DNA of 32,021 nt, taken from IMG/VR virus record IMGVR_UViG_2531839667_000012. One strand, 5' to 3'. This document shows positions 1,820-29,259 of the stretch, piece after piece. The notes under the pieces were generated by a model. The model saw nothing but the letters and a program-made list of their open reading frames with translations. It had not been told where the DNA came from and did no database searches. The DNA is from a virus (Duplodnaviria > Heunggongvirae > Uroviricota > Caudoviricetes). The position numbers and the translations under genes were made by a program. Within the stretch, counting starts at the first letter, position 1. Each line of letters starts with the position of its first letter.

Positions 1820-1828
1820 AACATTTCC

Positions 1829-5045: not shown

Positions 5046-5054
5046 GGTGGTATA

Positions 5055-5077: not shown

Positions 5078-5100
5078 AGCGTATAGGAAAAATATTCCCT

Positions 5101-5905: not shown

Positions 5906-5929
5906 CGATAAATATTAAGTGAGGATGTT

Positions 5930-6331
5930 TTGAATACATATAATTTATTTATTAGTCATTCATGGAAATATAATGATACATATGAATCATTGGTACGTCT
6001 TTTAAAAGGAAGAGGATATTTTGATTTTAAAAATTACTCAGTACCAAGAATAGATCCTATCATTGGTGCTAATAGCCATTCAGCTTTATATTCAGCAATT
6101 CAAAATCAGATGCGACCGTCTCAGGTAGTTTTGATTTTAGCCGGTGTATATGCATCATATAGTACTTGGATTGATGCAGAAATAAGGATAGCCAAGGATT
6201 GGAAAAAGCCAATTATCGCTATTGAACCTTGGGGATCTGAGAGGACATCCAAGGTAGTAAAAGATGCAGCGAACAGAATTGTAAAATGGAACTCAGATAG
6301 TATTGTTAAAGCAATTAGAGAGTTGGCATAA
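5930..6331 (+). CDS. Minimal TIR-like domain protein (predicted NAD+-processing signal generator)
   Basis: 133 aa; begins LFISHSWKY (TIR betaA-like) and contains YASYSTWIDAEI, resembling the TIR SxWxxxE catalytic-glutamate motif; TTG start with GAGGA upstream; AT-rich. Confidence 0.6.
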   Translation: MNTYNLFISHSWKYNDTYESLVRLLKGRGYFDFKNYSVPRIDPIIGANSHSALYSAIQNQMRPSQVVLILAGVYASYSTWIDAEIRIAKDWKKPIIAIEPWGSERTSKVVKDAANRIVKWNSDSIVKAIRELA

Positions 6332-6341
6332 GGATTAACTG

Positions 6342-13857: not shown

Positions 13858-13927
13858 AGGGCTGGCCTCCATCAGGTCAATAAATGACGATGGTGGCACA
13901 GAGCGAAAAGGGCGGTGACGGCTTCCA

Positions 13928-13950
13928 CTTGTAACCACTGGCACTACAAG
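13928..13950 (-). promoter_or_regulatory. Ogr-box dyad (CTTGTA-N11-TACAAG) of the late promoter for the FI operon
   Basis: cttgtaaccactggcactacaag about 80 bp upstream of the FI start; same 23-bp pattern occurs at three other late-operon heads. Confidence 0.6.
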
Positions 13951-13962
13951 CAGAAGCGGTTT

Positions 13963-14721
13963 TTAATTCAGGATAATCAATTCTGATGTGGCGCTGGCTG
14001 GCTTTCCACCTACGGTATAGCGAATCCCTACCGTTGAGAATGTCAGGCCGTGGAAGATATCGCGCATTTCCGGGATGTCGTTAACCGAGATAATCATCCG
14101 GCCCTGCATGGTGCGCGCCAGCTCTGCCATACGCTGGTACTGCTCAAGGCCAAATGGTACGCCGTAGCCTTCGGTTTTCCAGTATGGAGGGTCGCAGTAG
14201 AACAGGGTATGCGGGCGGTCATAGCGGCGAATACAGTCGGCCCAGTCCAGATTTTCAATGCAGACGCGCGCCAGCCGCAGATGGGCGGCGGATAAATCCT
14301 CTTCCATACGCAGCAGGTTCAGGCGCGGCGGTGAGGTGGTAGCGGTACCGAACGTGCGGCTTTCCACTTTGCCGCCGAATGCCAGCTTTTGCAGATAGTA
14401 GAAGCGCGCCGCGCGCTGGATATCGGTCAGCGTTTCTTCCGGGGTGATCTGGAGCCAGCGGTACATTTCGCGGCTGACCAGCGACCATTTAAACTGGCGG
14501 ACAAACTCTTCTAAATGGTGCTGAAGTACGCGGTAGAGGTTGGTAACGTCACCGTTGATATCATTCAGCACCTCGGCCTGTGCGGGCTGTTTCATAAAGA
14601 ACAACGCCGCCGCCCCGCAGAACGGTTCAACGTAGCAGCGGTGTTTGGGAAACAGTGGCAGAATGTGTTTTGCCAGCCTGCGCTTACCGCCGATCCACGG
14701 AATAACGGGTAACGTATTCAT
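13963..14721 (-). CDS. dam: DNA adenine N6-methyltransferase, Dam/D12 class
   Basis: 252 aa; motif I EPFCGAAALFF and motif IV FYCDPPYW; located between tail-fibre assembly gene G and FI. Confidence 0.85.
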   Translation of the reverse strand: MNTLPVIPWIGGKRRLAKHILPLFPKHRCYVEPFCGAAALFFMKQPAQAEVLNDINGDVTNLYRVLQHHLEEFVRQFKWSLVSREMYRWLQITPEETLTDIQRAARFYYLQKLAFGGKVESRTFGTATTSPPRLNLLRMEEDLSAAHLRLARVCIENLDWADCIRRYDRPHTLFYCDPPYWKTEGYGVPFGLEQYQRMAELARTMQGRMIISVNDIPEMRDIFHGLTFSTVGIRYTVGGKPASATSELIILN

Positions 14722-15185
14722 ATTGTCAATTTTCCAGACCGACTGCTGACCAACGCATACAGCAGATTAGGAGACCAGCGCCAACTATCGCGCAGGTGCA
14801 GAAATTCGGCGCAGAACTCGCTGCAAAACAGGCGTTCCTGTTTACCCTGACTGAGTAACACAAAACCCATGGCGCCCAGCCAGTCGTAACCTTTATCGTC
14901 GTGCTGACGAAAAAAGGTTTCCAGTGCCAGCGGATCGGCGTTGATCGGGAGTAAATCCCATTTCTCAATCGGCAGCGGCATTCTCTTGCTGCGCACGCCT
15001 TTATCCCGTACCGATGATGAGTAACAGATAAACAGGCCATCCGGCAGGCGTTCGACCAGTTCGCAGTGAGAGTAAGGGCCGCGCGTGACCTGTCGCGTCA
15101 ACCAGTCGGAGAGCCGGGCAAGGCTGAAAAAGCGTTCAGCCCGGCCACGGTAGAACGCCATGTAAACCTGACTCATGGTTGCCAT
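14718..15185 (-). CDS. Hypothetical protein (moron), translationally coupled between G and dam
   Basis: 155 aa ORF overlapping the G stop by 13 nt and the dam start by 4 nt; no motif recognised. Confidence 0.5.
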   Translation of the reverse strand: MATMSQVYMAFYRGRAERFFSLARLSDWLTRQVTRGPYSHCELVERLPDGLFICYSSSVRDKGVRSKRMPLPIEKWDLLPINADPLALETFFRQHDDKGYDWLGAMGFVLLSQGKQERLFCSEFCAEFLHLRDSWRWSPNLLYALVSSRSGKLTI

Positions 15186-15880
15186 CCTGACGAGTAGTCG
15201 TAACCCATAACCGCCTGCACCTCCGTCAATGCTTCAACGGCGGCAATATGCTGCTGGGCAGCGGCGAACAGGCGCATATCGTGCGCCATTGTTTCGGTTT
15301 CAAACCGGGCGGCGATTTCGTTGGTCAGTTCAATCAGGTTGTGATTTTTGGTCTGCCACATTAAGCCTGCCGGTATTTGTTTAGCCACGCCCATTTTGGT
15401 GAGCGAGAGCTGCTGGATGCGGCTGTTAGCGTCGCTGTGGAAATGGTGATTATCGATGATGATGTAGTCGGCGGTGATTCGATCGCGATACTGCTTTATT
15501 TCCGCCACCTTTGCCTGTCGGGCTTTTTCGATATCAGGCCGCCAGCGTTTGCCGTCCCAACGGACAAAGGCGTTATCGGGCTTCAGCAGAGTGACGTTAT
15601 CCGGCAATGGCCCCAGATGATGAAGCTGTACCTCACTGCCCGCATCGGTATCAAACGCGGTTTTACCGCGATGATCTTCTACCGCAAGCCATGTTTCTCC
15701 GTTGAATGTCAGGGCAAAGCCGCTCTGGCATTCGGGCGGTTCGATAGTGGTACAGCATTCCGGTAAGCCGGTGTTGGGGGCGATATAGGCGTCGCTGACG
15801 CCGATAAATTCCTGAGTATCTGCCGCGTAGTTAAAGATGCGCAGGGTTTGCGGTTCGTCGGAAAATGCGAATGTGCTCAT
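15173..15880 (-). CDS. G: Tail fibre assembly chaperone (P2 gpG-like)
   Basis: 235 aa directly downstream of the tail fibre gene, overlapping its stop; conserved N-terminal region of Tfa proteins. Confidence 0.8.
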
Positions 15881-17760
15881 GCCAGCCTCACGATATAGTT
15901 GAAAGCGATATTTTTAACGGTGTTTTCGGCGTTCCCGGCGGCGTTCACCGTAATAGTGTGGCTGTGGGAACCCAAGGCGATAGTGTGGTTATGCGCGCCG
16001 ATAGTCAGCGAATGAGTATGAGCGCCGATGGCTACTGTGTGAGTATGGACACCGTCTGTACTGGTTCTGAATTTGTAGTTATCCCAGTCTGTGTCTGCAG
16101 ACCCCTGATTATTACGGGTACTGTCGAAGTAACCGTGACGCCCACCGCTGGCTTCACCCCATCCGCTGTCGTGGTTGTGAGCACCGGCTGACGCTGTTGA
16201 TTTTGTCCCGTAGTCAAACGCGCTGGTATTTTTAGTACCCAAATCAGTGGAACTGGCGGTTTTAGTGCCTAAATCCGTGTTAGCGGCGCTGGCGGTGTGA
16301 CCATGAGATTTAACGCCATCCTGTTCCTGAGACAGTATCGTGCGTCCGCTGGCGGGCTTCCCCTTGATTGTCCAGCCTCGCATATCCGGGATTACACCGG
16401 AGGGGTAAGCGATTGCCAGTTTAGGGTAGGCGGTTTTATTGAAGGACTGACCGACCATCAGTGCATAGCCGCTAGGGATGGCATCGGATGGCCATGGAAT
16501 GGGAGCGCCTGCTGGGTAGAGTTCTTCTGGTAAGTTTCTGCTATTAAAATCTCGCCGCCAGCCGGGAGAGTATTGTGCTCCGTGATCGATATAGATAAAT
16601 TGCGCGTTGGCTATGCCTTTGGTCGATGTAGAGGGGGTAGTAATGCGGATTGTTTTTGCCGACTCAATACCCATGACCTCAATGACAGCGCCAGCCAGTT
16701 GAATATCGCCACAGCCTGTATCAGAAATGACTTTATTCGAGGCATAACTCCATGAACCTTTACACATCCAATAGGGGGTACTGAAAGCTCCCTGAACACT
16801 CAGCCAGCTTAGAAATTCAGTCGTAGTCCATGAGGCATCATTTCCACCAATAGACAGACTGCCGCTGAAGGCACGGCAGCGGCTATTGGCATTATCCATT
16901 ACTATTTTGACAGCCTTCGGTGTTGCGGCCATCGCCTCACTAACGTTATTGGTTTCGCTGTTAAGCTGGATTATCCCTTTGCGCATGGTGGTCGCATCCA
17001 GTGCGGTATATTTTCCATTAGCCAGATCGTAGGCCGCTTTCACGGCTTTAGGCGTGGCGGCCAGCGTTTCGCTGATACTGTCGATGGAGCTACTAAGCTG
17101 GACAATCCCTTTACGTGAGGTGGTGGCATCCAGTGCGGTATATTTTCCATTAGCCAGATCGTAGGCTGCTTTCACGGCTTTGGGCGTGGCGGCCAGTGTT
17201 TCGCTGATGCTGTTGGTCGCACTGCTTAATTGAGTAAAACCTTTGGCAGTTAACGTGGCGTCAGGATGGTTACGGGACTGCGCGTGGCGAGTCAGGCTTT
17301 CATCCACATACTGCCTCGTTGCCAACACTACGGCAGGGTCGATTTTCAGTTCCACGTTTTCCGTATGGGAGACAATCAACACCATGCGGATAATCTGCGT
17401 GCGACCCGAACCTTCGATTAGCTGCGGCTTGTAGGTTGGCGGGCAGTTGCCGACGGCAATCAGCCGGTCGTGCTCGTCGTACAGGCCAATTTCTCTGATC
17501 CACCATCCGCCTACGTCCTCCGGCAGCACCTGTTCGGCAATAATCTGGTTGGAGTTGTTAGGGTCAATACTGAGCGTATTCAGCGGTGCACGTCGACGTT
17601 CGTTGACTAGCCGGGTTTGACCGGTCTCCGGCGTTGGCAGGTTACCGTTTCCGTCGCCCACGGCCATTTGCGTCAGATGAAGAGGTGAACCCTGTGTGGT
17701 GGCGGTCGCCAGCGCGGATTCGCCAGTAGTGGTTAATAGCGTGAAATAGGTAGCGCTCAT
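15877..17760 (-). CDS. H: Tail fibre protein (P2 gpH-like N-terminus, divergent receptor-binding C-terminus with His-x-His repeats)
   Basis: 627 aa; N-terminal region and [37 protein letters not shown] repeats as I recall them in P2 H; C-terminus [33 protein letters not shown]. Confidence 0.9.
16862..17257. repeat. About three tandem copies of a 132-bp coding repeat inside the tail fibre gene
   Basis: Near-identical DNA blocks starting at about 16994 and 17126 (two full copies), with a diverged third copy at about 16862-16993; they encode the 44-aa protein repeat. Confidence 0.7.
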
Positions 17761-18371
17761 GGGGCGATCCTTAGCGTATCAATCAGATGCAGCGCAGCCC
17801 CGCGGTAGTCACGGCCCACGCTGTATACATGTTCGGGAATAAAGGGATAAACGGTGAGCGTATCGCCGGTATAGTTCGTCGCGCTGAACCAGACGTATCC
17901 GTTGCTTTGCAGGCTGATCGCCAGTCCGATTAAGTGGCGTGAACAGGGTTTTGCATCATCGATCAGGCGCTCCAGCTCTACATACATCTGCTCGGTGATG
18001 CCCTGTTCGCGCACGCCGACTTCCAGCGCGAAGGTGCCGGGAATACCTTCCGGGCGCAGTTGCCACCATTCGGTTACCCGGATAAGGAAACCGAGCGGTT
18101 CCACCGCACGCTGCAGTGCGCCGATGGTGCCTTTGTGCTGATGGATGTAGAAAGAAGCAGCAATCACCTGCCGCTTGGTATCGGCTGGCCAGTTTTCATC
18201 CCAGCGGTCAACGGAAAACGCCCATGCCAGATAAGGCAACAGCGCGGCGGGGCAGCTATCCGGTTGCCACAAGCTACGCAGCGGGACTGGCATTTGTTCA
18301 GTCAGACTGCCGGTTTGCGCCAGATTCTGCTCCAGCGAGCTGGCATTGTTGGGGAGCAGGGAGCTATTCAT
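17757..18371 (-). CDS. I: Baseplate protein (P2 gpI-like)
   Basis: Start chosen at ATG 18371 (MNSSLLP...) adjacent to the J stop; the longer ORF overlaps J by 77 nt. Confidence 0.8.
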
Positions 18372-19275
18372 CGCTTCCCCCGATGGCAATTTGCCATCCG
18401 GTGCAGTAGCTGGCCTGCGTTTTGTTGATAATGACATCAACGGCAGGGGAGAGCAGTTCTACGCGCTGAACGCCGGTGACATGCAGTGCGGCGTAAATCG
18501 CGCTGCGGCGAATATCGCGCCCGATTCGATGCTGGTCATTGACGTAGCTTTGTAGCCGCTGCTCGGCGGCCTGCCGAATGGGTTCCTGCTCCGGGCCGGG
18601 ATAGCAATAAAGTACGGCATCAATCTGATACGGGATCACTTCGGCGGACTGAATGGTTGGGCGATCGCCTACCGGACGAATATCAATATCGTTCAGGGCG
18701 GAATCGACTATCGCCAGCAGTTCTGCGCTGGCCAGCCCGTTGCCTTCGCGGGAGAGTACCGACACGGTGACGTAACAAGGATAGGGGCTGATAGCGGAGA
18801 CGTCGGCGATACGCCCGTCTGCGCTGCGGGCGTGATATTCGTAGGCGGCGGTCGGGCCAGCGACGGACAGACCTTCAAACGCCTGCTGTGCGCGCATTCG
18901 TAAATCGCTGTCGGATTCATAAACCGGATCAACGGGCGGTATCGCCGTACTGTCTCCGGGCGAGATTTGCAGGCGAAAAACCTTAAAGTTAGCGACCAGA
19001 TTATCCAGATCGCGCCCGGCGGCATGGGCCAGCATATTAGCAACGGCGGCTTCATTAATGCGTACCCGCAGCGCCATCTCTAAGTAAGTATTTTCCTGCA
19101 ACAGCTTGACGAAGGGTTCTGATTCATAGCCCAGCGTGCGGGTAACTTCTGCTTGCTGTTCGGCAGGATACAGGCTGATAAAGCGCTGCTTGCGGGCGGT
19201 GAACAGGGTTTCAAAATCGACTGTTTCCACTACATCGGGGATCGGTAACTGGCTTAAATCGGCCAGCGCGCTCAT
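18364..19275 (-). CDS. J: Baseplate wedge protein (P2 gpJ-like)
   Basis: Start chosen at ATG 19275 (MSALADLSQLPIPDVV...), overlapping the W stop as ATGA. Confidence 0.85.
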   Translation of the reverse strand: MSALADLSQLPIPDVVETVDFETLFTARKQRFISLYPAEQQAEVTRTLGYESEPFVKLLQENTYLEMALRVRINEAAVANMLAHAAGRDLDNLVANFKVFRLQISPGDSTAIPPVDPVYESDSDLRMRAQQAFEGLSVAGPTAAYEYHARSADGRIADVSAISPYPCYVTVSVLSREGNGLASAELLAIVDSALNDIDIRPVGDRPTIQSAEVIPYQIDAVLYCYPGPEQEPIRQAAEQRLQSYVNDQHRIGRDIRRSAIYAALHVTGVQRVELLSPAVDVIINKTQASYCTGWQIAIGGSDE

Positions 19276-19622
19276 GAACGTCTCCTGTCGATCGGAATGG
19301 AGAATGCCCACGGCTGGCCGGGGATATCGGTACGTTCGGCTTCAATAGTGACGCTGAGATCGGCATTTTCCGCAGCAAAGTCCACGCCGATAATCTCGAG
19401 GCGGGGTTCCCAGCGCGTCAGCGCCATAACCACCGCCGACATCACCCGCAGTCGGGTACTGCCATCGTTGGGCTGGTCGATCAGGTTACCGATCAGTGAG
19501 CCATAATCGCGGCGCATCACGCGCGTACCTACCGGCGTGGTCAGAATATCTTTTACGGATTGCTTAATGTGCAGCTCGTCGCTTAACGCTCTGCCGGTTT
19601 CGGCGTTCATACCGAGGTACAT
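19272..19622 (-). CDS. W: Baseplate protein W (gp25-like)
   Basis: 116 aa; position between V and J; gp25/GPW-like sequence. Confidence 0.85.
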   Translation of the reverse strand: MYLGMNAETGRALSDELHIKQSVKDILTTPVGTRVMRRDYGSLIGNLIDQPNDGSTRLRVMSAVVMALTRWEPRLEIIGVDFAAENADLSVTIEAERTDIPGQPWAFSIPIDRRRS

Positions 19623-20221
19623 TACTGTGGCCCTCCGGTATTGCTACCCCCGCGCTCCACGCCTGTGTGCGTGTGGGTATGGACGGTGACGCCGTTGGAG
19701 GTAAAACTGCCGCCGCTGTGAGTGTAAGCGCCTTTAAGCGTGCCGCCTTTTTTAACCGACAGCGTGGTGGTTTCCAGATGCTGGGTGCAGACGACGAGCG
19801 GTGTATCCAGCGTGACGAGGGTACTGGCTTCGACCAGTGCGGTCTTGATGCCGGTGGCTTTTAACGCGCTGGAGCGCGGATCATATTCAATCACCGCACC
19901 ATCGGGGTAAATGGTGTGGTGAACCTGTTCATCCAGCATCGGGGCGGGGTTGGCGTCAGAGTAAATGGCCGGAAGCGCCACGGCGGTGGTTAACTCTCCG
20001 CTTAAACAGAGCAGTAACACCTGTTCGCCTGTTGATGGCCGCCACCACGTCCGGGCATCACCGGCGCGTAGCGTCAGCCACGGTATCCAGTTGGTGGTCA
20101 GTTCACCAGTGTGAATGCGTACTCGATCGCCCTTCACCTCTTCAACGGTGCCGGTACGGATCAGGTTTTCAATGCGCCGGTGCAGCTCGGCGATGTTGGC
20201 TGGGTGGTTTGCGTCGCTCAT
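19622..20221 (-). CDS. V: Baseplate spike/hub protein (P2 gpV-like)
   Basis: 199 aa; first gene after an Ogr-box promoter; C-terminal Gly/His/Thr-rich tip. Confidence 0.85.
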   Translation of the reverse strand: MSDANHPANIAELHRRIENLIRTGTVEEVKGDRVRIHTGELTTNWIPWLTLRAGDARTWWRPSTGEQVLLLCLSGELTTAVALPAIYSDANPAPMLDEQVHHTIYPDGAVIEYDPRSSALKATGIKTALVEASTLVTLDTPLVVCTQHLETTTLSVKKGGTLKGAYTHSGGSFTSNGVTVHTHTHTGVERGGSNTGGPQ

Positions 20222-20265
20222 GCCGGAATCATTGGGATTCGCGGGCGAAGAGGGAAGGGCTAAGG

Positions 20266-20288
20266 CTTGTAGGATAATGGGCTACAAG
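20266..20288 (-). promoter_or_regulatory. Ogr-box dyad (CTTGTA-N11-TACAAG) of the late promoter for V-W-J-I-H-G
   Basis: cttgtaggataatgggctacaag located 45-67 bp upstream of the V start. Confidence 0.6.
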
Positions 20289-20312
20289 TAAAACGCCCCT
20301 GAGTAGGGGCGT
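20284..20312 (-). terminator. Rho-independent terminator downstream of hicB
   Basis: Hairpin ACGCCCCT-gagt-AGGGGCGT (8-9 bp stem, 4-nt loop) followed on the minus strand by TTTACTT. Confidence 0.6.
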
Positions 20313-20327
20313 TGAACGAAAAAGAGC

Positions 20328-20663
20328 TTAACCGTGCGCAGCCTTCATCAGTGTATCGTTAATCCACTGGTTAACGCTTTTACCGGAGACTTCTGCCGCA
20401 ACGTTAATGGCAGAGTGAATTTCAGGTGGAATACGCAGGCTGATTTTTCCGCTGGCCGGACGCAACGGCTCCCGGCCCCGTTCCTCGCAGTAAGCCAGAT
20501 AGTCGTCTACCGCCTCTTCAAACGCTTTACGCAGATCGGCAACATTATCGGCATGAAAGCCAATGACATCCCGAATGCCTGCAACGTGACCAACAATGCA
20601 TTGATCTTCATCGCTGTATTCAATTTTTGCGGCATAGCCTCTATATGTCATGGTATTCATCAT
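20328..20663 (-). CDS. hicB: HicB-family antitoxin (RNase H-like fold N-domain plus C-terminal RHH DNA-binding domain)
   Basis: 111 aa; YRGYAAKIEYSDEDQCIVGHVAGIRDVIGFHADNVADLRKAFEEAVDDYL and C-terminal KISLRIPPEIHSAINVAA RHH-like segment; overlaps hicA by 4 nt. Confidence 0.85.
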   Translation of the reverse strand: MMNTMTYRGYAAKIEYSDEDQCIVGHVAGIRDVIGFHADNVADLRKAFEEAVDDYLAYCEERGREPLRPASGKISLRIPPEIHSAINVAAEVSGKSVNQWINDTLMKAAHG

Positions 20664-20923
20664 GGTGTTACCCCTACAGCTTCAAGGAATGTTCTGGCAT
20701 CGCGAACCTGATAGGCTTTCGCTTCTTTTTCCGGGTGTGGACGATGAAATGAAGCCACAACCTGATTAATTTCAAACCTGACGCGGGAACCGTTTCCTTC
20801 CGTAGCAATAGCCCCCAAAGCAATAAATAAGGCTTCTATTTTTCGCCATTCCAGCGTGACAGGTGTTGGCGTAGAAAAAACAGCTTGTAAGGTTTTTTTA
20901 TGTTTGGCGCTTAACGTATTCAT
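20660..20923 (-). CDS. hicA: HicA-family mRNA interferase toxin
   Basis: 87 aa; GNGSRVRFEINQVVASFHRPHP resembles E. coli HicA ANGSNHLKLRFHGRRSVMPRHP. Confidence 0.8.
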   Translation of the reverse strand: MNTLSAKHKKTLQAVFSTPTPVTLEWRKIEALFIALGAIATEGNGSRVRFEINQVVASFHRPHPEKEAKAYQVRDARTFLEAVGVTP

Positions 20924-20972
20924 ACAGGGTATTTTCCATAAGTTATTTTATTCTTCCGCCAAGATATAATGA

Positions 20973-20996
20973 TGATATCATTTTTTGATATCATTT
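20973..20996. promoter_or_regulatory. Two copies of palindrome TGATATCA(T) upstream of hicA; candidate HicB operator / hicAB promoter
   Basis: atgatatcat at 20973-20982 and tgatatcat at 20988-20996 in an AT-rich stretch between the S start and hicA start. Confidence 0.5.
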
Positions 20997-21442
20997 CAAG
21001 TCAGGAAGTGAACGATTAGCGCCTCTATCTTTCGCACATCCTCCGCCGAAACCCCCAGCAACTGCCTTTGTGCGTAATCCACCTCCAACCCGTAGCGATT
21101 TACCCGATCGCGCAGGCCATACTGATGAACGGCGGCCATATGTCGAACGCTGCTGAGAAACGAAATGGTTGCTCCCTGCCCATCTCCTTTTCCTTTCATA
21201 TAGCGTGCGGTACGCAGCTTACGGAACATCTGGCGGCGGATCTTTCCTTTTTTACTGCGTAGCTGGGGCTTACGGGGGGCGAACGATGAGCCGTCCGGGT
21301 TTTTCTGCGCGGCTATCCGCTGGCTTTGTGACTGGCGCAGGCTGCGGGCGATTTCCCGCGCCAGTTGGGTTCGGCTTGCCGGGGAGAGCTTTACGAGCAG
21401 GCCATCGGCCCAGCGGTGGAGTTGTTGCAGGTCTTCGCTCAT
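20996..21442 (-). CDS. S: Tail completion protein (P2 gpS-like)
   Basis: 148 aa; position after R; basic central region. Confidence 0.85.
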   Translation of the reverse strand: MSEDLQQLHRWADGLLVKLSPASRTQLAREIARSLRQSQSQRIAAQKNPDGSSFAPRKPQLRSKKGKIRRQMFRKLRTARYMKGKGDGQGATISFLSSVRHMAAVHQYGLRDRVNRYGLEVDYAQRQLLGVSAEDVRKIEALIVHFLT

Positions 21443-21900
21443 CAGGTGCTCACAATCGTTTCACCGCGACAGGCGATTTCCCAGCCGTTGTAACCGCTTT
21501 CTGGCTGCTGGTCGTTACAGTGCTTTGCTTCCAGACCACCGTCGCGCTGGCGAACAATGACGCGCTCGGTCAGCGCCAGTTTGATGCTGATATCGTAGCT
21601 CTGATGGTCGATGGCTTCGGCCTCAAACTGAAACGCCTGCTCGCGCAGGTCGCTATTGGCGAAGGCTTCCTGCTGGTGAAGCGACATCCAGCCGACCAGC
21701 GGCACCATCAGCGTATCGGGATCGGCGGCGTAGTCGGTGATCAACAGTTCCAGCGTGTACTGGTATTCAAAACTGGTGCTGCGCCCTGCGGTGGCGACGA
21801 TCCGGCCCTTATTGATAAAGATCCGCAGCGCGTCCGGGTTCTGCTGTAGATGCGGGACGCTGGCGGCCAGCAGTTCACGGATGAGCTGCGCTTTGTGCAT
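21442..21900 (-). CDS. R: Tail completion protein (P2 gpR-like)
   Basis: 152 aa; position between lysis genes and S. Confidence 0.85.
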   Translation of the reverse strand: MHKAQLIRELLAASVPHLQQNPDALRIFINKGRIVATAGRSTSFEYQYTLELLITDYAADPDTLMVPLVGWMSLHQQEAFANSDLREQAFQFEAEAIDHQSYDISIKLALTERVIVRQRDGGLEAKHCNDQQPESGYNGWEIACRGETIVST

Positions 21901-22150
21901 CGATACGCTCCTGACAGCTAATCGTCATATCCACCTGCGCAGCGCACTGGTGCCACGCGTTTTCAGTGTCCAGCAGTGCGCGGCTTAAATCTTCATTACT
22001 CTGCGGTTGCAGCGCCGGAAGCTGGCAGGGCCTCAGTTTCGGGCAATTGACGGTAAGCCGCACTGCCGGTAATGGTGGTGTGCTGGTGCAGGCGGATAAT
22101 ATCAGCGGGCAAAGCAGTATCAGCCCATTCACGAAGCTGTTGATTTTCAC
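21875..22150 (-). CDS. lysC: o-spanin (Rz1/LysC-like outer-membrane lipoprotein)
   Basis: 91 aa; signal peptide with lipobox LILSAC, Pro-rich mature part; starts inside the i-spanin gene in another frame and extends past it. Confidence 0.75.
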   Translation of the reverse strand: MKINSFVNGLILLCPLILSACTSTPPLPAVRLTVNCPKLRPCQLPALQPQSNEDLSRALLDTENAWHQCAAQVDMTISCQERIDAQSAAHP

Positions 22151-22445
22151 GTTTCAGTTTCTCCAGTTGTTGATTGTGCTGCCGTAGCTGGTCATGGGCG
22201 TCGGCGGTTTGCTGTTGCAGCGTCAGGTATGCCTGCTGGTCGGCGTCGGCCTGTTGCTGGAGTTCGTCCAGTTCCTGCACTTTTGTCATCAGGGATTCGG
22301 TCAGGCTGGCAATCTGAGTGTCGGCCAGCCTGATGTGCTGCTGCTGTTCAATAAGCTGTTCCTGCTGCGTCATACGCTGCCAGTTCGTCCAGAGCAGCAT
22401 CACGCCGAGCAACAGCAGCGGCGCGGCTTTTATCCAGCCCATCAT
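21996..22445 (-). CDS. lysB: i-spanin (Rz/LysB-like)
   Basis: 149 aa; N-terminal TM helix, Gln/Leu-rich coiled-coil periplasmic domain. Confidence 0.8.
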   Translation of the reverse strand: MMGWIKAAPLLLLGVMLLWTNWQRMTQQEQLIEQQQHIRLADTQIASLTESLMTKVQELDELQQQADADQQAYLTLQQQTADAHDQLRQHNQQLEKLKRENQQLREWADTALPADIIRLHQHTTITGSAAYRQLPETEALPASGAATAE

Positions 22446-23032
22446 GCTGCCGCCTTACTGAATTTTTCGAAGGCGATCGCCAGCTTCGTATCGTACTGGT
22501 TGCGTTTGTACTGTGGCCCGTTGTAGCGGCGGGCGAACTCTGGCCAGTTCTGTACCTTCATCGCGTCGTGGATCTTCGAATTGGCCTCAACGAAGCGCAC
22601 GAAGGCGTCAAGCTGCATCTGCTCGCTGTCGTTCATCTGCTTTTCAAAGTCGGCGGCAGAGGCGTAGCCCAGCGCTTTCCAGTGAAAGCCCATAATCTGG
22701 AACAGTCCCCAGCTTGCGCTCTCAATGGCGGCGGTGCTGTGGATCTGTTTCGCCAGATTCAGACGGTAGTGCTCACGGCTTCCGCCCTGATAGCCGCCTG
22801 TGCTCTTGTTCACCAGATCCGGGTAATTCTGCGCCAGCCGGTCGGCGTCCAGTCCGTGGCTTTTTAACTGGCGGTACATGATGTGGCGTTCAAACAAAAG
22901 AGCCGGGTGGCCATCGGGCAGGAAGCCGTGAGATCGGGCTTCAACCTCCTGCACCGCCTGTAATGCCGCCAGCGGGATACCCAGATACAACGCGGCGGCC
23001 TGCTGCTGATCATGGGTGAGTGTACGAGTCAT
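22442..23032 (-). CDS. Endolysin, N-acetylmuramidase-like
   Basis: 196 aa, lies between the membrane proteins and the spanins; family assignment from overall resemblance to phage muramidases, not from a single catalytic motif. Confidence 0.7.
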   Translation of the reverse strand: MTRTLTHDQQQAAALYLGIPLAALQAVQEVEARSHGFLPDGHPALLFERHIMYRQLKSHGLDADRLAQNYPDLVNKSTGGYQGGSREHYRLNLAKQIHSTAAIESASWGLFQIMGFHWKALGYASAADFEKQMNDSEQMQLDAFVRFVEANSKIHDAMKVQNWPEFARRYNGPQYKRNQYDTKLAIAFEKFSKAAA

Positions 23033-23324
23033 GGCGTGGCTCCTTCGGGTGATGACGTAAGGGGTTAATCAGACTGGCGACGTTGCCGCGTGCAGCGCTC
23101 AGGCAAATCAGCAGCACGATGTTGATGGCGGTTTCGGCGATAAACACGTAGCGGTACAGGCTGAAACAAATCAGTACCGCCACCGATGCGGTGCAGCACA
23201 TCAGCAGCCACGCCAGCCAGCTATACAGCGGGCGATAGGTAGTACCGTGAATGCGGCGATAGAGGAACAGGCGGACGGTAATCAGCAGGCAAATAATGGC
23301 GTTAAGGCTCAGGATTAGTTTCAT
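23010..23324 (-). CDS. Small membrane protein of the lysis cassette (antiholin/LysA-like candidate)
   Basis: 104 aa with at least two hydrophobic helices; ATG at 23324 with AAGGGGA upstream, overlapping the holin stop as ATGA. Confidence 0.6.
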   Translation of the reverse strand: MKLILSLNAIICLLITVRLFLYRRIHGTTYRPLYSWLAWLLMCCTASVAVLICFSLYRYVFIAETAINIVLLICLSAARGNVASLINPLRHHPKEPRHDSYTHP

Positions 23325-23698
23325 TTGCGTCCCCTTAAAAAGTCGAGCAGTTGACCGGGGTTATCCAGTTGTCGGATGGCCCATAGCAGCGCCTTGACGG
23401 TAAGCGCCGATGAGAGCAGCGCCCCGATACCGGGGGAGACTTTTTCCATCAGATGCTGCGGCAGATATCCGGCGACCAGCGCGGTAAACAGGTCGGCGGT
23501 CAGCAGGCCGATCACAAACGCCACGCAGAAGAAAATGATGCGCAGGAACAGGCCGATCTCTTTTTGCGAAATCACCAGCAGCAGCGCGCCACACAATGCG
23601 CCGAGCACTACCGGAGCCTGTAGCGTCGGGAACAGCGTGGCAATGGAGAATGCGCTTACGGAAGCGGCGACGACGGTGCCGGTTACGGGTTCGTTCAT
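23321..23698 (-). CDS. Putative holin
   Basis: About 125 aa from the ATG at 23698 (MNEPVTG...), three or more predicted TM segments, position directly after X and before the endolysin. Confidence 0.65.
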   Translation of the reverse strand: MNEPVTGTVVAASVSAFSIATLFPTLQAPVVLGALCGALLLVISQKEIGLFLRIIFFCVAFVIGLLTADLFTALVAGYLPQHLMEKVSPGIGALLSSALTVKALLWAIRQLDNPGQLLDFLRGRK

Positions 23699-23700
23699 AG

Positions 23701-23904
23701 TCAGTCCCACAGGTTGATTCGTTGACGTGCGGTGGCGGGAGCCTGTTCCGGTACGTTAACCGCCGTACCGTGTGGCAGGCGCAGCGGCAGTTCGCACAGG
23801 CGCGGGTTGTTCTGGTAAAGCTGTTCGACAATCCCGGCAGTGCGCCCGAAGATGCGCCAGCAGAGCTGATCGAGCGTTTCGTTTTGCAGGCTATAGACAA
23901 TCAT
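23701..23904 (-). CDS. X: Tail protein X (LysM-like)
   Basis: 67 aa; DQLCWRIFGRTAGIVEQLYQNNPRLCELPLRLPHGTAVNVP...LWD matches the P2 gpX pattern as I recall it. Confidence 0.85.
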   Translation of the reverse strand: MIVYSLQNETLDQLCWRIFGRTAGIVEQLYQNNPRLCELPLRLPHGTAVNVPEQAPATARQRINLWD

Positions 23905-23976
23905 GGTGTTTCCCGCGCGGCGTCAGGTGATGCGGGGATGGTGGCACAGGGGCGGGAAGTGAAGGGAAGGCTTCCG

Positions 23977-23999
23977 CTTGTAACTGAGGGCAGTACAAG
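23977..23999 (-). promoter_or_regulatory. Ogr-box dyad (CTTGTA-N11-TACAAG) for a late promoter heading the X-lysis-R-S segment
   Basis: cttgtaactgagggcagtacaag about 75-95 bp upstream of the X start. Confidence 0.6.
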
Positions 24000-24018
24000 C
24001 GGAAGCGATTGGCGAGGG

Positions 24019-24339
24019 CTATGCCTCGTCGCTGTCGGTATTGATGATTTTCAGTTCAGCGGACTTCTGGAGCTGGATCAGCGCCGGAAGCAGAAGCGCG
24101 GTAGCCGACAGGCCATGCCCTAGCTGGCACAGGCTTTCAGCGGAGAATTCCAGCACGTTGCTGTCGGCAAAGGAGACGAAGGTTTTACCCAGAAAATGCA
24201 GGCCGTGACATAGTCCGGCGTAGCACTCTTCGCTGCTGTTGGCCAGTAGCAGAGTATCGTCGGCGTTCAGGTGTGAAATATCCATCTTGCGGATCGCGTC
24301 CGCCAGTTCAGAGGACAGAATATTGGTTTCAGGCACCAT
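24019..24339 (-). CDS. Hypothetical protein
   Basis: 106 aa ORF, backbone-like GC, overlaps the upstream 68-aa ORF by 11 nt; no motif recognised. Confidence 0.4.
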   Translation of the reverse strand: MVPETNILSSELADAIRKMDISHLNADDTLLLANSSEECYAGLCHGLHFLGKTFVSFADSNVLEFSAESLCQLGHGLSATALLLPALIQLQKSAELKIINTDSDEA

Positions 24340-24535
24340 GGCGCACCTCCAGCGGTTTGCAGGAGACGAACACCAGCGGGAAACCCGCCAGCAGGTCGCG
24401 AGCCTCGATTTCAGTTGTTGCCAGTACAGACACCAGACGCAGGGGCTGGATCTCGCGCAGCAGGCGGTTGGAACGGGCGTTCAGGAAGGTGTAGAGCTTT
24501 GAATGTGCGCGTATGTTACTATTAGCGGTAGCCAT
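24329..24535 (-). CDS. Hypothetical small protein
   Basis: 68 aa ORF, divergent from the Arc-like gene. Confidence 0.35.
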   Translation of the reverse strand: MATANSNIRAHSKLYTFLNARSNRLLREIQPLRLVSVLATTEIEARDLLAGFPLVFVSCKPLEVRHGA

Positions 24536-24635
24536 AGCATTAGCCTCTTTAATGTTGTGGTCAGAGGCCCGTTGGTGTTGGTAGCACCTGCGGGCTTCGT
24601 TCGTTTAAGGGTTGCAAAACATCACGTAATTGCGA

Positions 24636-24676
24636 TGTAATTACAACTACATCATTCTAAGGATTTTGTAATTACA
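24636..24676. promoter_or_regulatory. Two copies of the perfect 10-bp palindrome TGTAATTACA (24636-24645 and 24667-24676); candidate operators in a divergent promoter region
   Basis: Second copy ends immediately before the ATG of the Arc-like gene; an additional half-site-like GTAATTG at 24626-24632. Confidence 0.55.
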
Positions 24677-24847
24677 ATGTCAAGTGAAAAGGCTAAAACA
24701 GATCAGTACCAACTTCGTCTTGCTCATGAATTTAGAAAGCAGCTTGAAGAACAGGCTCGTAAAGATGGAGATACCTCTCTCGCAACATGGATAAAACGCG
24801 TTTTGCGTAAGGAACTTCAGTCACGAGGTATTGAACCCAAAGGATAA
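24677..24847 (+). CDS. Arc/MetJ-type ribbon-helix-helix repressor (56 aa; below the ORF-track size cutoff)
   Basis: Hand translation MSSEKAKTDQYQLRLAHEFRKQLEEQARKDGDTSLATWIKRVLRKELQSRGIEPKG; QYQLRLAHEF...SLATWIKRVL resembles Arc beta-strand and helices. Confidence 0.6.
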   Translation: MSSEKAKTDQYQLRLAHEFRKQLEEQARKDGDTSLATWIKRVLRKELQSRGIEPKG

Positions 24848-24948
24848 TTACGGAGATATCAAGCAGCGCTAAGAAGTTAGGATTATTTGTTCAGCCCAGA
24901 TTAGTCGATATGCACTGATTAACTTAAACATTGTGTGTAGGAGGTGTT

Positions 24949-25602
24949 GTGGATATTGAATTTTTTCTTAAAGAGCGCACAAGATTCGTTACTTATTTCT
25001 ATGAAACGGCTGCTGCACCATTTGTTAACATCATGAATGATATTGAGAATGAAGTGGAACCTTATATTCAGCCGTATGGTGAGAGTGATGAACCAGCTTT
25101 TTTAGATGAATGGTTAGATGCAAAGTCGGGATTAGAAACCTGTGGGCACCATGCATTATCGATGCTTTCGTCTTCTCTTCAGTTGTACCTGAAGGCGTGG
25201 GTAGATCGCTTAGGATATCATAGCGTGAAATCTGATATAAATTTCAAGAAGGGTTGGTTTAATGGCTATCGTGAAATTTTCAACAAAATTGAGTTGGAAA
25301 TGGCAAAATGTCCTGCAAATTTGGAAATAATTGAACAAATTCCCTTGGTGAGAAATCGTGTCCAGCATCCTGAGGAACTTACCTCAATTAATATTTCTCA
25401 CTCAAAAAATGACTTGGAAAAATATCCTCGCCCATACTTTATTCAGGAGTGTGAGCTACTTTTGGCTTCCGAACAGGAAGAAAAATCGTGGTTATTCCCA
25501 CCTACAATATCCCCGACTAAAGAGAAAATATTCGAAGCTATCAGAAATGTTGAAATGCTGTGCTCTTGGTTAGAGTCTGAGTATTGGTCGGCTCTTGACT
25601 AA
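24949..25602 (+). CDS. Hypothetical protein, AT-rich cargo gene under the Arc-like regulator
   Basis: ORF in the track starts at TTG 24931; GTG 24949 follows a GGAGG SD (short spacing). About 217-223 aa; no motif recognised. Confidence 0.5.
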   Translation: MDIEFFLKERTRFVTYFYETAAAPFVNIMNDIENEVEPYIQPYGESDEPAFLDEWLDAKSGLETCGHHALSMLSSSLQLYLKAWVDRLGYHSVKSDINFKKGWFNGYREIFNKIELEMAKCPANLEIIEQIPLVRNRVQHPEELTSINISHSKNDLEKYPRPYFIQECELLLASEQEEKSWLFPPTISPTKEKIFEAIRNVEMLCSWLESEYWSALD

Positions 25603-25637
25603 ATGTAGAATAGAGTAAGTCAGCGTCAAATGAAAAC

Positions 25638-25655
25638 AGCCCGACGAATCGGGCT
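25638..25655. terminator. Hairpin between convergent genes (candidate bidirectional terminator)
   Basis: AGCCCGA-cgaa-TCGGGCT stem-loop; T-run follows on the minus strand (GTTTTCA), weaker on the plus strand. Confidence 0.5.
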
Positions 25656-25691
25656 ATTATGGCTATCAGGCAAACACTACCTTCAAACTCA

Positions 25692-25928
25692 TTATGCCGC
25701 CTCAATACCCGCTCTGGTTAACATATAGTGGCCCCAGTGGGTTTTCTTCAGATAACCGGCCAGTTCCATCTGTGTCACAATAAATTCAGCGTTAACTATT
25801 TCTATATCTGCGTAGTCGGCCAGATCGCGCAGCGGCCATGTGCTGCGAACTCCGACGCTAACTATGGTATCTCTGATGCGGCGAGCGGTATCGGTCATTG
25901 GGCGGGTTCTGGCTGCCTGAATAGTCAT
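25692..25928 (-). CDS. Hypothetical small protein downstream of L
   Basis: Start chosen at ATG 25928 (MTIQAART...) with GGGGA upstream; ORF track begins at a GTG (25967). Confidence 0.4.
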   Translation of the reverse strand: MTIQAARTRPMTDTARRIRDTIVSVGVRSTWPLRDLADYADIEIVNAEFIVTQMELAGYLKKTHWGHYMLTRAGIEAA

Positions 25929-26043
25929 GGTATTTTCCCCTGTAAGTTCTTTCGTTGGGTCAGACACTAACTCTGGTGGGGAAGGGGCATCCAGCGTTCA
26001 GATGAGGCGATACGGTGATGCGCATCGCATATCCGTACTCTTT

Positions 26044-26511
26044 TTATACCAGAACAAACGTGCTACGCGGCTTGCCCAGAATATCCCGCACTGCGAAGCG
26101 GGCATCGCGCGCCAGATCGTCGGCGGTGCTTTCCTTTTGTTCCACCAGTTTGCTGCCGTGGGCGGTGGCATCAAAGTTACGGTAGCGTTCCAGCAGGTTT
26201 GCGTGCGTCAGGCTGTACACCGCGTGGCGGTAGCGGTGCAGGTTAACGCTTGCGCCGTCCAGTCGTTCGGTCGTGGTTTCCGCAATGCAAGTTGTGCCAC
26301 GGTTTTCCTGTTCCAGCCGCCATTCCCGCAGGTCGTCGTTTACGCTGGCCAGCGCAATCAGCAGCGCCTCGCGCAGCCGTTCGTTGGTGACGGTGCTGTC
26401 CAGCCGTTGGGTCGCACGCAGATGTTGCGTATCAATATCGGGAAAGAAAGGGTGGTTGCTGATAACCAGCCCCGGCAGACTGGCGGCGGGGGCAACCTGA
26501 ATAAAGCTCAT
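26044..26511 (-). CDS. L: Head completion/stabilisation protein (P2 gpL-like)
   Basis: Start chosen at ATG 26511 (MSFIQVAPAAS...) with AGGGAG upstream; about 155 aa. Confidence 0.75.
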   Translation of the reverse strand: MSFIQVAPAASLPGLVISNHPFFPDIDTQHLRATQRLDSTVTNERLREALLIALASVNDDLREWRLEQENRGTTCIAETTTERLDGASVNLHRYRHAVYSLTHANLLERYRNFDATAHGSKLVEQKESTADDLARDARFAVRDILGKPRSTFVLV

Positions 26512-26596
26512 TATATTCTCCCTGTTCGGCGGTGGACGGCGGGCGTTGCAGTGGTATAACCACGCGCGGCCAGCCGTGCCGCCGGTCGTGAGGGTC

Positions 26597-27250
26597 TCAC
26601 TCGGTAGGCTGACTGTTGCGAATTTGTCGCTCCAGTTGCTCAATCAGTTTTTTCACGCCGACGTTCTCATCCAGTTGTAGCGCGCGCTGGAACTGCGCCA
26701 GCGCCTCCTGCGGCTGGCTTTCGCTGTGTGCCAGCCCCAATGCCTTGTGCAGGCGGGCGCGAACCTGATCCGGCATGTCTTGGGAGGCTAACAGTCCGGC
26801 AAAGGCCAGCAGGCTGTCCAGCGCCACAAAGGTACCGGCGGCAAGCTGTTTCAGAGCGGTATCGGCAACCTCTTCAGCCACCATGCAGGCGGTCTGCCGT
26901 TGGTACTGATCCGGCGTTACCCAGCTGTGTTTCAGGGCGTGTTCCGCCATGGGGTAGGCAGCGGGAAAGTCGCCGGTATCCAGCGTCCAGAGCAGCACCG
27001 TCATAAACACATCGTCCTGATGCTTGCTGTCAGCGGCCAGAACGCCGCTTACCCACGGCTGGTAATCGGGCAGCAGTTCACCCTTAACCTCGATTTTACG
27101 TTCAATGGACTGGATCGCTTTCAGGCGGCGTTTATCGGTTGCCAGCTTTGCCAGCATCAGTTCATAGCCGCTGGCGTAGGTCTGGTTTTCCTGTTGATTT
27201 GCGGCCTGCGCCTGATGGCGCAACAGGTGGCGGCGGGCAGGCGTCATCAT
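26597..27250 (-). CDS. M: Terminase small subunit (P2 gpM-like)
   Basis: 217 aa; sequence resembles P2 M as I recall it; position after N. Confidence 0.85.
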   Translation of the reverse strand: MMTPARRHLLRHQAQAANQQENQTYASGYELMLAKLATDKRRLKAIQSIERKIEVKGELLPDYQPWVSGVLAADSKHQDDVFMTVLLWTLDTGDFPAAYPMAEHALKHSWVTPDQYQRQTACMVAEEVADTALKQLAAGTFVALDSLLAFAGLLASQDMPDQVRARLHKALGLAHSESQPQEALAQFQRALQLDENVGVKKLIEQLERQIRNSQPTE

Positions 27251-28266
27251 GCGTCTTTATCCTCAAACTTAATGTTTTCAAACAGGCAGCCGCAGCCGAA
27301 GTCTTCCACCACAAATGCATCGTTGGAGGACTCGAAGTTCTCTACCCGGTCACGTTTGGGGTTATCAATAATGGCGCGGCGGCGGGTGCCTTTCTGGACA
27401 TAGATAGACAGGTTGCTGAAGGCGGTGACCAGAATGGTGTTGCGCGGGAAACCCGGCACGCGCACGGCAGGGCGTCCGCCGATGGTTTTCTGGCTGACCA
27501 GAATCTGCCCCGCCAGTTTTTCGCTGTTTTCATTGTGCTGGTTGAGGATCGGGAAGTATTTGTCGTGCAGGACGCCACGGCCACAAATGGCGACCAGATC
27601 TGCGCCGTCGACGTGCCATTCGTCAATCAGGTTTTCTTCGCCGTCATTGACCATGGCGTCCAGATTCTCATAGTCGCCGCCTTTGCCAATGATGATTTTG
27701 CCGGAACCTTCCACACCTTCGTTCATGACGCGTTCCGGGGCGTGGTCGCGGTACTGTTGCAGCCAGCCCTTGTTAACGTCCTGTAGAAGGGGGTAACGCT
27801 GGAAGTCGGTCTGGGCGGCAACGAGGATACCGTTGAAGCCAATCAGGATGCGGTCTAATCCCTGTCGCCGGGTGATGCTGTCGCGCACGCGGATCTGAAA
27901 ATCCGGGTGCACGGCCCATGCGTCCAGTTTGGCGTATTTCAGCGCGGTGTCGTAGTTGGTTTTTTCGCAGCGGTAACGATTAGTCGTCATCGACGTGGGG
28001 TCGATGGGTTCACGCTCACGCTGGCTGGTATCGGTGCGACTGGCCGTGGGGCGATCAATGCCGATACCGACTTTTTCACCTTCCTGATCCACCACTTCAT
28101 GGACGTTGATTTTGGTCAGGAACTCCACGGACGCCTGAATTTTAGTTTCCAGCGTCTGCTGTACGGAAGGTTCTACCGTGAATTCGACGGCGGCGCTCTG
28201 GACACCGGACAGCCCGGCGACGGTTTCAACGTAAGCGTTGTATTTTAAGCGGGTTTCGTTACGCAT
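27247..28266 (-). CDS. N: Major capsid protein (P2 gpN-like)
   Basis: 339 aa; position between O and M. Confidence 0.9.
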   Translation of the reverse strand: MRNETRLKYNAYVETVAGLSGVQSAAVEFTVEPSVQQTLETKIQASVEFLTKINVHEVVDQEGEKVGIGIDRPTASRTDTSQREREPIDPTSMTTNRYRCEKTNYDTALKYAKLDAWAVHPDFQIRVRDSITRRQGLDRILIGFNGILVAAQTDFQRYPLLQDVNKGWLQQYRDHAPERVMNEGVEGSGKIIIGKGGDYENLDAMVNDGEENLIDEWHVDGADLVAICGRGVLHDKYFPILNQHNENSEKLAGQILVSQKTIGGRPAVRVPGFPRNTILVTAFSNLSIYVQKGTRRRAIIDNPKRDRVENFESSNDAFVVEDFGCGCLFENIKFEDKDA

Positions 28267-28276
28267 CGGGGGTTCC

Positions 28277-29104
28277 TTAACAGTCGGTTTTCAGGTCGGT
28301 GTTGCCACCGGTGGCAGGCTGGCGCGATGGTGTGGCCGGTTGCTTTGCAAGCTGAGTTTTCAGCGTGGAATAATCGGCCTGTAGCTGCTGATGCTGCGTT
28401 TGCAGTTCAGACAGCTCAGCGCGAATTTGGTCGACCTGTTCGCTACAGAACGTCGCTACTTCCTCCACCGCCAGATGCACGTCGTCCCGTTGCTGGTCGT
28501 CGTGGTTCTGCTTTTTACTTAACAGCGCCTTGATGCGGGTAAACAGCGATTCGCCGCTGCTTTCCTCCACTTCTTCAAACTCCAGTTCAATCTCTTCTGC
28601 CACGCTGAAAATGTTCTTCGGCGAGCGCTTACGCGCCGCCAGCGGGTTGCTCTGCGCGCTGGCGCAGAAGGAGAGCATTTCGGTGCCGAGACTGGCCGGA
28701 TCGTCGGTGACTGCCAGCCCGACCAGATAGGCTTTGCCTGTATCGGCAAATTTCGGATCGACTTCCACCGAGGTATAAACCTTCTGCCCTTTGCGGTTCA
28801 TTTCGACCAATGAATCCGTTGGGGCCAGACGTGCCAGCAGCGCCAGTTTGCCTTTCAGGGGGCCGTCTTCGGCGATCTCTTCTTTCTTCACCATCGCCAC
28901 GTCGCCGTAGCGCTGGAACGGGCCGTCCGGCAGGATGCCTTTCAGGTGCTCCAGATTAATGCGCGCGCCGTACACTTTTGGGCTGTATGTATCGGCCATT
29001 TGCTCGATCCACTGGCGTTCAATAGTGCGCTTGTCGCAGGTTGCGCCTTCTACGGCGATACGCACCCATTTAGAGAGCAGTTTTTTCTTTGGCTTTTTGT
29101 CCAT
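28277..29104 (-). CDS. O: Capsid scaffolding protein (P2 gpO-like)
   Basis: 275 aa; first gene of the leftward capsid operon, divergent from P. Confidence 0.85.
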   Translation of the reverse strand: MDKKPKKKLLSKWVRIAVEGATCDKRTIERQWIEQMADTYSPKVYGARINLEHLKGILPDGPFQRYGDVAMVKKEEIAEDGPLKGKLALLARLAPTDSLVEMNRKGQKVYTSVEVDPKFADTGKAYLVGLAVTDDPASLGTEMLSFCASAQSNPLAARKRSPKNIFSVAEEIELEFEEVEESSGESLFTRIKALLSKKQNHDDQQRDDVHLAVEEVATFCSEQVDQIRAELSELQTQHQQLQADYSTLKTQLAKQPATPSRQPATGGNTDLKTDC

Positions 29105-29176
29105 AACGTTCAGTCCCGGCGTTGGCTAAATAAGCGAATGGTCGGGTAGTCCTCCGCTATCAGGCAACGGGCTTCG

Positions 29177-29199
29177 CTTGTAATCATCCGGGTTACAAG
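29177..29199. promoter_or_regulatory. Ogr-box dyad (CTTGTA-N11-TACAAG) in the divergent O/P promoter region
   Basis: cttgtaatcatccgggttacaag, 73 bp from the O start and 61 bp from the P start. Confidence 0.55.
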
Positions 29200-29259
29200 C
29201 GGCATTGCTACGCGCAGGCAGCGGCTTGTTTACGCTGACGGCAGAAACGAGAGGACGTT

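Follow-up and report, generated by a model that had tools for sequence, protein, structure and literature searches.

The window analyzed here is a 32,021-nucleotide stretch of DNA, the IMG/VR virus record IMGVR_UViG_2531839667_000012 (class Caudoviricetes), and our subject is a 23-bp dyad, CTTGTA-N11-TACAAG, which stands at the heads of its late operons. The window is a divergent P2-like prophage whose late genes lie mainly on the minus strand and follow the P2 order, as assigned with PHROGs. These assignments bear out the names FI, V, X, O, and P used in a preliminary description of the stretch (Table 1), and they also identify two holins, S, the head completion gene L, and the small terminase gene M.

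When 20 kb of the window was compared by megablast with 50,697 phage records, no close relative emerged, and the best DNA match in the phage collection was limited to the FI gene, at ~73% identity to Ralstonia phages (with the FI of RSA1 the best). The nearest genome is that of Edwardsiella ictaluri ATCC 33202, whose V is 91% identical. A few IMG/VR records belong to this lineage as well, and one of these is identical to the window.

Four dyads at the heads of the late operons

The window contains exactly four exact copies of CTTGTA-N11-TACAAG, all at the coordinates given in the preliminary description, which also correctly put 13 nt between TGT and ACA. The pattern did not occur in 100 dinucleotide-preserving shuffles, and allowing up to two mismatches across the whole window added no copy to the exact four. 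At three mismatches there were three additional matches, all of them within genes, for a total of seven versus 8.5 expected, which is the chance rate. All four centers, by comparison, fall in intergenic DNA, which makes up 5.2% of the window on our gene map (chance ~7e-6). When every 5-mer dyad with a spacing of 8–16 was counted without bias, this one was the most frequent in the window. The looser TGT-N13-ACA is by itself weakly enriched (10 matches vs. 5.3 expected); therefore, the signal resides in the full 6-bp half-sites. A general repeat search of the window found nothing further than the dyads, and two N12 matches with two mismatches each, at 4716–4739 (in ogr) and 427–450 (in int), were judged to be chance.

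The four dyads face five late transcription units, since the copy between O and P lies between divergent genes; we refer to the corresponding promoters as pO, pP, pX, pV, and pF. In all five directions a -10-like hexamer whose second base is A and whose sixth is T begins 43–45 nt from the dyad center, which would place the centers at about -55 to -57. The transcription starts listed in Table 1 are predictions from these hexamers, which were read from the sequence, and not mapped ends. The pO and pP hexamers are invariant in the relatives compared (four in the case of pO), and that of pF is kept in relatives including the divergent locus L041, whereas the pX position reads CACTAT or CATCAT in relatives. 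The pX hexamer is preceded by TGc, as in an extended -10 element, and pX and pF have the box CTGTGCCACCATC in common. At pV the predicted start coincides with, or is next to, the V initiation codon, so that the V messenger RNA (mRNA) would be leaderless, as annotated for P2; no Shine–Dalgarno sequence is visible upstream of the V ATG. A scan for the sigma-70 consensus found no canonical promoter at the five positions, a result that speaks to the consensus only and not to activator dependence; the same scan does find promoters for two of the inserts described below (hicAB and c68/c106).

The preliminary description had left it open whether the single copy between O and P serves both directions or is joined by a second, weaker site. 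We sought such a site in the 155-bp O–P gap with up to three mismatches and spacers of 10–12 nt and did not find one. P2 and RSA1 likewise have a single site each at this position, and one shared site is the answer that fits.

Table 1. Positions of the dyads, the -10-like hexamers, and the genes and inserts discussed in the text (position 1 is the first letter of the window)
Feature	Position	Strand	Remarks
pO/pP shared dyad	29177-29199		center 29188; 84 nt to O ATG (29104), 72 nt to P ATG (29260)
pO -10-like hexamer GACCAT	29138-29143	-	begins 45 nt from center; predicted start ~29131
pP -10-like hexamer TACGCT	29231-29236	+	begins 43 nt from center; predicted start ~29243
pX dyad	23977-23999	-	center 23988; 84 nt to X ATG (23904); heads X, holins, endolysin, R, S
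pX -10-like hexamer CACCAT	23938-23943	-	begins 45 nt from center; predicted start ~23931
pV dyad	20266-20288	-	center 20277; 56 nt to A of V ATG (20221)
pV -10-like hexamer AATGAT	20228-20233	-	predicted start at or next to V ATG
pF dyad	13928-13950	-	center 13939; 82 nt to FI ATG (13857)
pF -10-like hexamer CACCAT	13890-13895	-	TGc before; begins 44 nt from center; predicted start ~13883
Tail sheath FI	12679-13857		PHROGs
Baseplate V	19622-20221		PHROGs
X	23701-23904		PHROGs
Scaffold O	28277-29104		PHROGs
Large terminase P	29260-31044	+	PHROGs
Ogr/Delta-family zinc-finger gene	4572-4799	-	82-aa open reading frame 4572-4820, probable start 4799; presumed dyad binder
Arc-like protein	4839-5045		
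XRE-type repressor	5101-5466		
L–X cargo	24019-26040		four open reading frames; absent from L002, L009, L010
Sigma-70-like promoter in cargo	24654-24683	-	TTGACA-18-TAGAAT, near consensus; followed by two small open reading frames, c68/c106
Antisense open reading frame in cargo	24931-25602	+	opposite to late transcription
Terminator-like hairpin in cargo	25635-25658	-	
hicAB sigma-70-like promoter	20972-20999	-	
Intrinsic-terminator-like hairpin ending hicAB	20292-20313	-	3 nt upstream of pV dyad

Half-sites, spacing, and the probable activator

Comparison with related loci (given here by their L numbers) separates the half-sites from the DNA between them. Of the 22 site copies compared in the window and its relatives, 20 have exact half-sites, the exceptions being one substitution each in L011 pV and L046 pX, while each site has from two to six different spacers. 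In the Edwardsiella-lineage relatives there are six spacers in seven loci at pV and three each at pF and pX. The O/P dyad is kept with a different spacer in L002, L009, and L010, and the pF dyad is kept in L002, L010, and L039; L041 differs at pF in both the spacer and the outer arms. At pV the upstream DNA is unrelated between most loci, with homology breaking within a few nucleotides of the dyad, because each locus carries a different insert. Downstream of the same dyad, a CT-rich block and a caatgat -10 block are invariant (caatgat in 7/7 relatives, the full ccaatgattcc in 6/7). Fixed half-sites combined with free spacers are the footprint that a symmetric protein-binding site, as part of the downstream promoter, would leave.

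The window encodes a candidate for the protein in question. The Ogr/Delta-family gene of Table 1 matches Pfam Ogr_Delta with E = 1.1e-19, and its translation contains the exact CX2CX22CX4C motif. It stands second in an early operon that runs, in order, Arc-like protein, Ogr, Toprim primase, a 125-aa protein, and AlpA, and that diverges from the XRE repressor gene. Among relatives the Ogr protein is 85–90% identical and the dyad is constant, whereas the XRE protein is only 54–59% identical. We considered whether ogr might regulate itself through the dyad and rejected this, since the early/ogr region lacks it in all five genomes (the window and four relatives).

The early region as a whole (1–5466) is not P2-like. 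It holds a P4-type integrase with an Arm-binding domain (1–1200, plus strand), AlpA, the 125-aa protein, and an 884-aa Toprim primase; this gene order is common to three relatives and resembles RSA1 and the Stenotrophomonas phage Smp131 rather than P2.

The four dyads very probably act as operators for the Ogr-family late activator that the prophage itself encodes, and drive five late transcription units. Dependence on Ogr had been proposed in the preliminary description from the position and symmetry of the motif, and the proposal gains support from the encoded Ogr/Delta gene, from a placement and geometry matching those of P2, and from half-sites that are kept where spacers change. Ogr would be made from the early operon after induction and would bind, as a symmetric pair of zinc-finger subunits, to two TTGTA half-sites ~55–57 bp upstream of the late starts. 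Once bound, it would recruit RNA polymerase to promoters that have a weak -10 and no -35 element, presumably through the contact with the alpha subunit of the polymerase that is established for P2 Ogr. The O/P site, being symmetric and equidistant from two divergent -10 elements, would fire both pO (O-N-M-L) and pP (P-Q). The unit driven by pX would comprise X, the lysis genes, R, and S; that driven by pV, V-W-J-I-H, tail-fiber assembly, and the methyltransferase, starting with a leaderless V mRNA; and that driven by pF, FI-FII-E-T-U-D.

The spacing deserves separate treatment. The annotated sites of P2 fit TGT-N12-ACA and not the N13 form, and the P2 late-promoter consensus is quoted as TGT-N12-ACA (PMC3931495). 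In RSA1 (NC_009382) we find TGTTGT-N13-ACAACA at O/P (a single site), before V (center 56 nt from the ATG), and before FI, and the late-promoter motif of RSA1 and RSY1 has been described in the same form (PMC5694545). We surveyed 72 distinct FI-upstream regions from related viral contigs with FI 65–100% identical. TGT-N13-ACA (consensus YTGTA-N11-TACAR) is present in 61 of them, its center 78–97 nt before the ATG, and the N12 form at that position in none of the 72; several unrelated contigs carry the identical CTTGTA-N11-TACAAG. Two ~50%-identical relatives have TGT-N12-ACA between O and P. Judged from these sequences, N13 prevails in a large clade of P2-like phages and is no peculiarity of this prophage. 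The textbook TGT-N12-ACA is therefore not general, which matters for the prediction of late promoters and for inferred cross-activation between helpers and satellites.

A different dyad occurs in the Providencia-type loci L003, L012, and L017 (V ~49% identical), where the P/O dyad at ~3840–3870 is GGTTCTCA-N8-TGAGAACC and not TGT...ACA. This suggests that the Providencia-type lineage has a different late-activator specificity.

Several points weigh against reading the dyads as Ogr sites and should be kept in mind. For this phage the reading rests on sequence and on analogy with P2 and RSA1. The -10 assignments were made post hoc, and a hexamer with A2 and T6 in a 3-nt window has a ~15% chance of occurring per promoter. 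The spacing is 1 bp off the P2 consensus and the Ogr protein is only 42% identical to P2 Ogr (41% to RSA1 ORF38); cross-recognition with P2 is therefore not to be assumed. In L008 the pV dyad (9764–9785) has a spacer of 10 nt, CTTGTA-gcgtcccttt-TACAAG, which amounts to TGT-N12-ACA with exact half-sites, the rest of the promoter being conserved, and which may be either a tolerated spacing variant or a weakened promoter. Lastly, pF and pX carry outer arms that an Ogr-site model alone leaves unexplained.

The predicted promoter before X and alternative roles for the dyads

In P2, RSA1, and the other sampled lineages, L and X overlap or lie no more than 21 nt apart, with no dyad between them. The predicted pX, a fifth late promoter that is specific to this lineage, is the only true departure from P2. 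It is present with cargo in the window, L008, and L046 (inserts of 2–3 kb), and without cargo in L002, L009, and L010, where the start of the dyad is 14 nt beyond the L stop codon. The preliminary description had read the copy before X as a separate late promoter that bridges the cargo between L and X. One part of this holds well, because the cargo of the window carries a terminator-like hairpin on the late strand and an antisense gene, so that pX would be needed here. The implied tie to the insertion does not hold, and we rejected pX as a necessary consequence of the cargo, which the cargo-free relatives lack while keeping pX.

The cargo also holds a small minus-strand open reading frame (ORF). 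Its ORFs match phrog_19484, phrog_20855, phrog_28203, and, weakly, phrog_331; no Pfam domain was found in them, and the three tested gave no PADLOC match. The homologues of c68 and c106 in L046 are 58% and 36% identical, versus ~80% for the flanking structural genes. As L046, the most divergent, also has c68/c106 homologues, loss of the cargo in the E. ictaluri branch would seem as likely as its gain.

Outside the half-sites, pX resembles pF, with an alignment score of 18 versus a shuffle null of -20.9 ± 4.6, and no other pair of promoters stands out; pX probably arose by duplication of pF, or the reverse. Both also have outer arms. The pF core lies inside a palindrome with 13-bp arms (13921–13957) and the pX core inside a perfect one (23970–24006), whereas pV and O/P have the 6-bp core only. 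Folded as late-sense RNA, the pX palindrome reaches -25.1 kcal/mol (z = -9.0) and that of pF -20.2 kcal/mol (z = -4.3); the hairpins of pV and O/P are weak, with z between -1.6 and -3.5. The arms of pF in the window pair by way of two G.U pairs, and only in the late-sense RNA. In L041 the pF arms (586–624) have a different sequence and yet are perfectly complementary, CGCTATTG / CAATAGCG, through two double compensatory changes, and L041 pX keeps the usual arms. This suggests that what pF maintains is pairing and not the sequence of its flanks. When viral and metagenome contigs were scanned by pattern for covariation of the arms, only the same lineage and chance matches came up, with no further diverged examples (true instances numbered 9 of 14 stretches among the viral contigs and 8 of 82 matches among the metagenome contigs), which leaves one diverged lineage as the basis of the hairpin idea.

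One might accordingly ask whether the dyads are mainly nucleic-acid structures, that is, hairpins in read-through RNA that end, insulate, or stabilize the upstream operon. The strong folding at pX and pF and the complementary changes in L041 fit such a role, as does the location of both palindromes just after the stop codon of the upstream gene with no canonical terminator upstream, such as pV has. The two remaining dyads do not fit it: they have weak hairpins, and at O/P there is no upstream transcription to terminate. No dyad is followed by a U-tract after its stem, the terminator scan calls none of them, one mismatch is present in the pX arm of L211, and Rfam at gathering thresholds finds no RNA family in the window. 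It is the half-site sequence that is conserved and not mere pairing; spacers vary freely and the half-sites show no covariation. We consider this explanation of the dyads very unlikely. A structural role would at most be an added function of the outer arms at pF and pX, and a role of those arms at the RNA level is a minor possibility.

Such an added function can be put in a more specific form, which we think improbable though better than the alternatives to Ogr binding. Here, pF and pX would be two copies of a single portable cassette, in which a palindrome with 13-bp arms precedes a TGcCACCAT -10 box. The inner 6 bp of each arm would serve as the Ogr half-site, and the outer arms, folding in read-through RNA, would terminate or insulate the unit upstream. 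Duplication of the cassette into the L–X junction would have split the O operon and made a slot for cargo that spares the lysis and tail-completion genes.

The dyads could also be operators of the XRE-type repressor, the Arc-like protein, or a host factor, repressing the late genes in the lysogen, given that XRE and Arc-like proteins are DNA-binding dimers encoded in the window and that symmetric operators are typical of such proteins. The dyad is, however, absent from the 55-bp repressor/early-promoter region and from the whole early region in the window and four relatives, and a site near -56, clear of the core promoter, is not where a repressor would be expected. In P2, the sites annotated for the activator have this position and belong to this motif class, and the divergence of XRE among relatives contrasts with the constancy of the dyad and Ogr. 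We give this still less credence than the structural explanation.

Least probable of all is that the dyads are scars or targets of cargo-inserting recombination, or a small mobile palindromic element, found at operon heads by coincidence: cargo does lie directly upstream of three of the four dyads (the methyltransferase at pF, hicAB at pV, genes of no known role at pX), homology does break next to the pV dyad, and pF and pX are paralogous cassettes, but the O/P dyad has no cargo, pX occurs in insert-free relatives, the dyads do not shift relative to the conserved -10 blocks and start codons, P2-like phages of distant hosts, whether they carry other cargo or none, have this motif class at the same places, and cargo at operon ends is better explained by tolerance of insertions there.

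Three further regions should be noted by anyone annotating this lineage. At 20292–20999 (minus strand), between S and V, a hicA/hicB toxin–antitoxin pair occupies the position of P2 orf30, and relatives carry unrelated inserts at this junction. At 13963–14721 (minus strand), a D12/Dam-class adenine methyltransferase gene is the last before pF, in the position of P2 fun(Z); it is 95% conserved in the E. ictaluri relative, and its end lies 6 nt short of the pF palindrome. An island of 39% G+C (5471–7307, plus strand), where relatives carry other genes, separates tail gene D from the XRE repressor gene. Its products are a WYL-domain protein, a ThsB-like TIR protein (Pfam 2e-16, PADLOC ThsB 5e-12), and a caspase-family protease (Pfam Peptidase_C14 1e-14, PADLOC "caspase" 6e-18), and it looks like anti-phage defense cargo of a TIR-plus-caspase type.

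Comparison with known late-activation systems

The delta protein of satellite P4 and the B protein of phage 186 belong to the same activator family and act at a partial dyad near -55. P4 delta is a tandem two-domain protein of a satellite; unlike P4, the window has nothing that indicates a satellite, and no dyad lies outside the late operons.

In Smp131, dyads before the P/O, tail, and baseplate operons were used to predict the late promoters, with PP' and PO' assigned to one single site, and an Ogr-like gene lies near a primase gene and an integrase gene (PMC3931495). Smp131 differs in that its sites are reported as similar to TGT-N12-ACA, its operon composition is rearranged, and no promoter before X is reported (PMC3931495).

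RSA1 has the TGT-N13-ACA spacing with a TTGT...ACAA core, the single O/P site, the 56 nt from center to ATG at V, and an Ogr homologue in the early operon beside a primase-type replication gene. It is unlike the window in having three sites with none before X (L and X abut), in its half-site TGTTGT instead of CTTGTA, in spacers that are GC-rich palindromes, and in its host, a betaproteobacterium as opposed to Edwardsiella-type Enterobacterales.

The fullest comparison is with P2 (NC_001895), where activator sites head the same operons, namely P/Q and those beginning with O, V, and FI. The P2 pO and pP promoters share one activator site (3057–3087) and start at 3127 and 3016, each 55.5 nt from the center of TGT-N12-cCA, and the window likewise has a single site. 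For P2 pV the annotated start coincides with the first nucleotide of V, with 56.5 nt from center to ATG (56 in the window), and the center of P2 pF lies 82.5 nt from the FI ATG (82 in the window) and 57–59 nt from its start. Both phages have no -35 element and a CX2CX22CX4C zinc-finger activator, and the predicted starts of the window would put the centers of its sites, like those of P2, at about -55 to -57. They differ in the half-sites, which are perfect 6-mers at all four sites of the window and imperfect (TGT-N12-cCA or cAA) at the three sites of P2, and in the location of ogr, which is inside the early operon of the window, whereas in P2 it follows gene D and has its own promoter. The window, moreover, has a fourth site and a fifth promoter before X, where L and X of P2 overlap.

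What is new here is an undescribed Edwardsiella-type P2-like lineage, its lineage-specific fifth late promoter, and the kinship of that promoter with pF, all of them modest additions. The analysis yields an annotation-ready map of the predicted late circuit, which comprises the activator gene, four operators, and five promoters, one of them giving a leaderless V mRNA. Nothing in it alters the current understanding of Ogr-type activation, and the biology is ordinary for the family except for pX, the extra promoter that would explain how a 2-kb insert is tolerated amid what is a single operon in P2.

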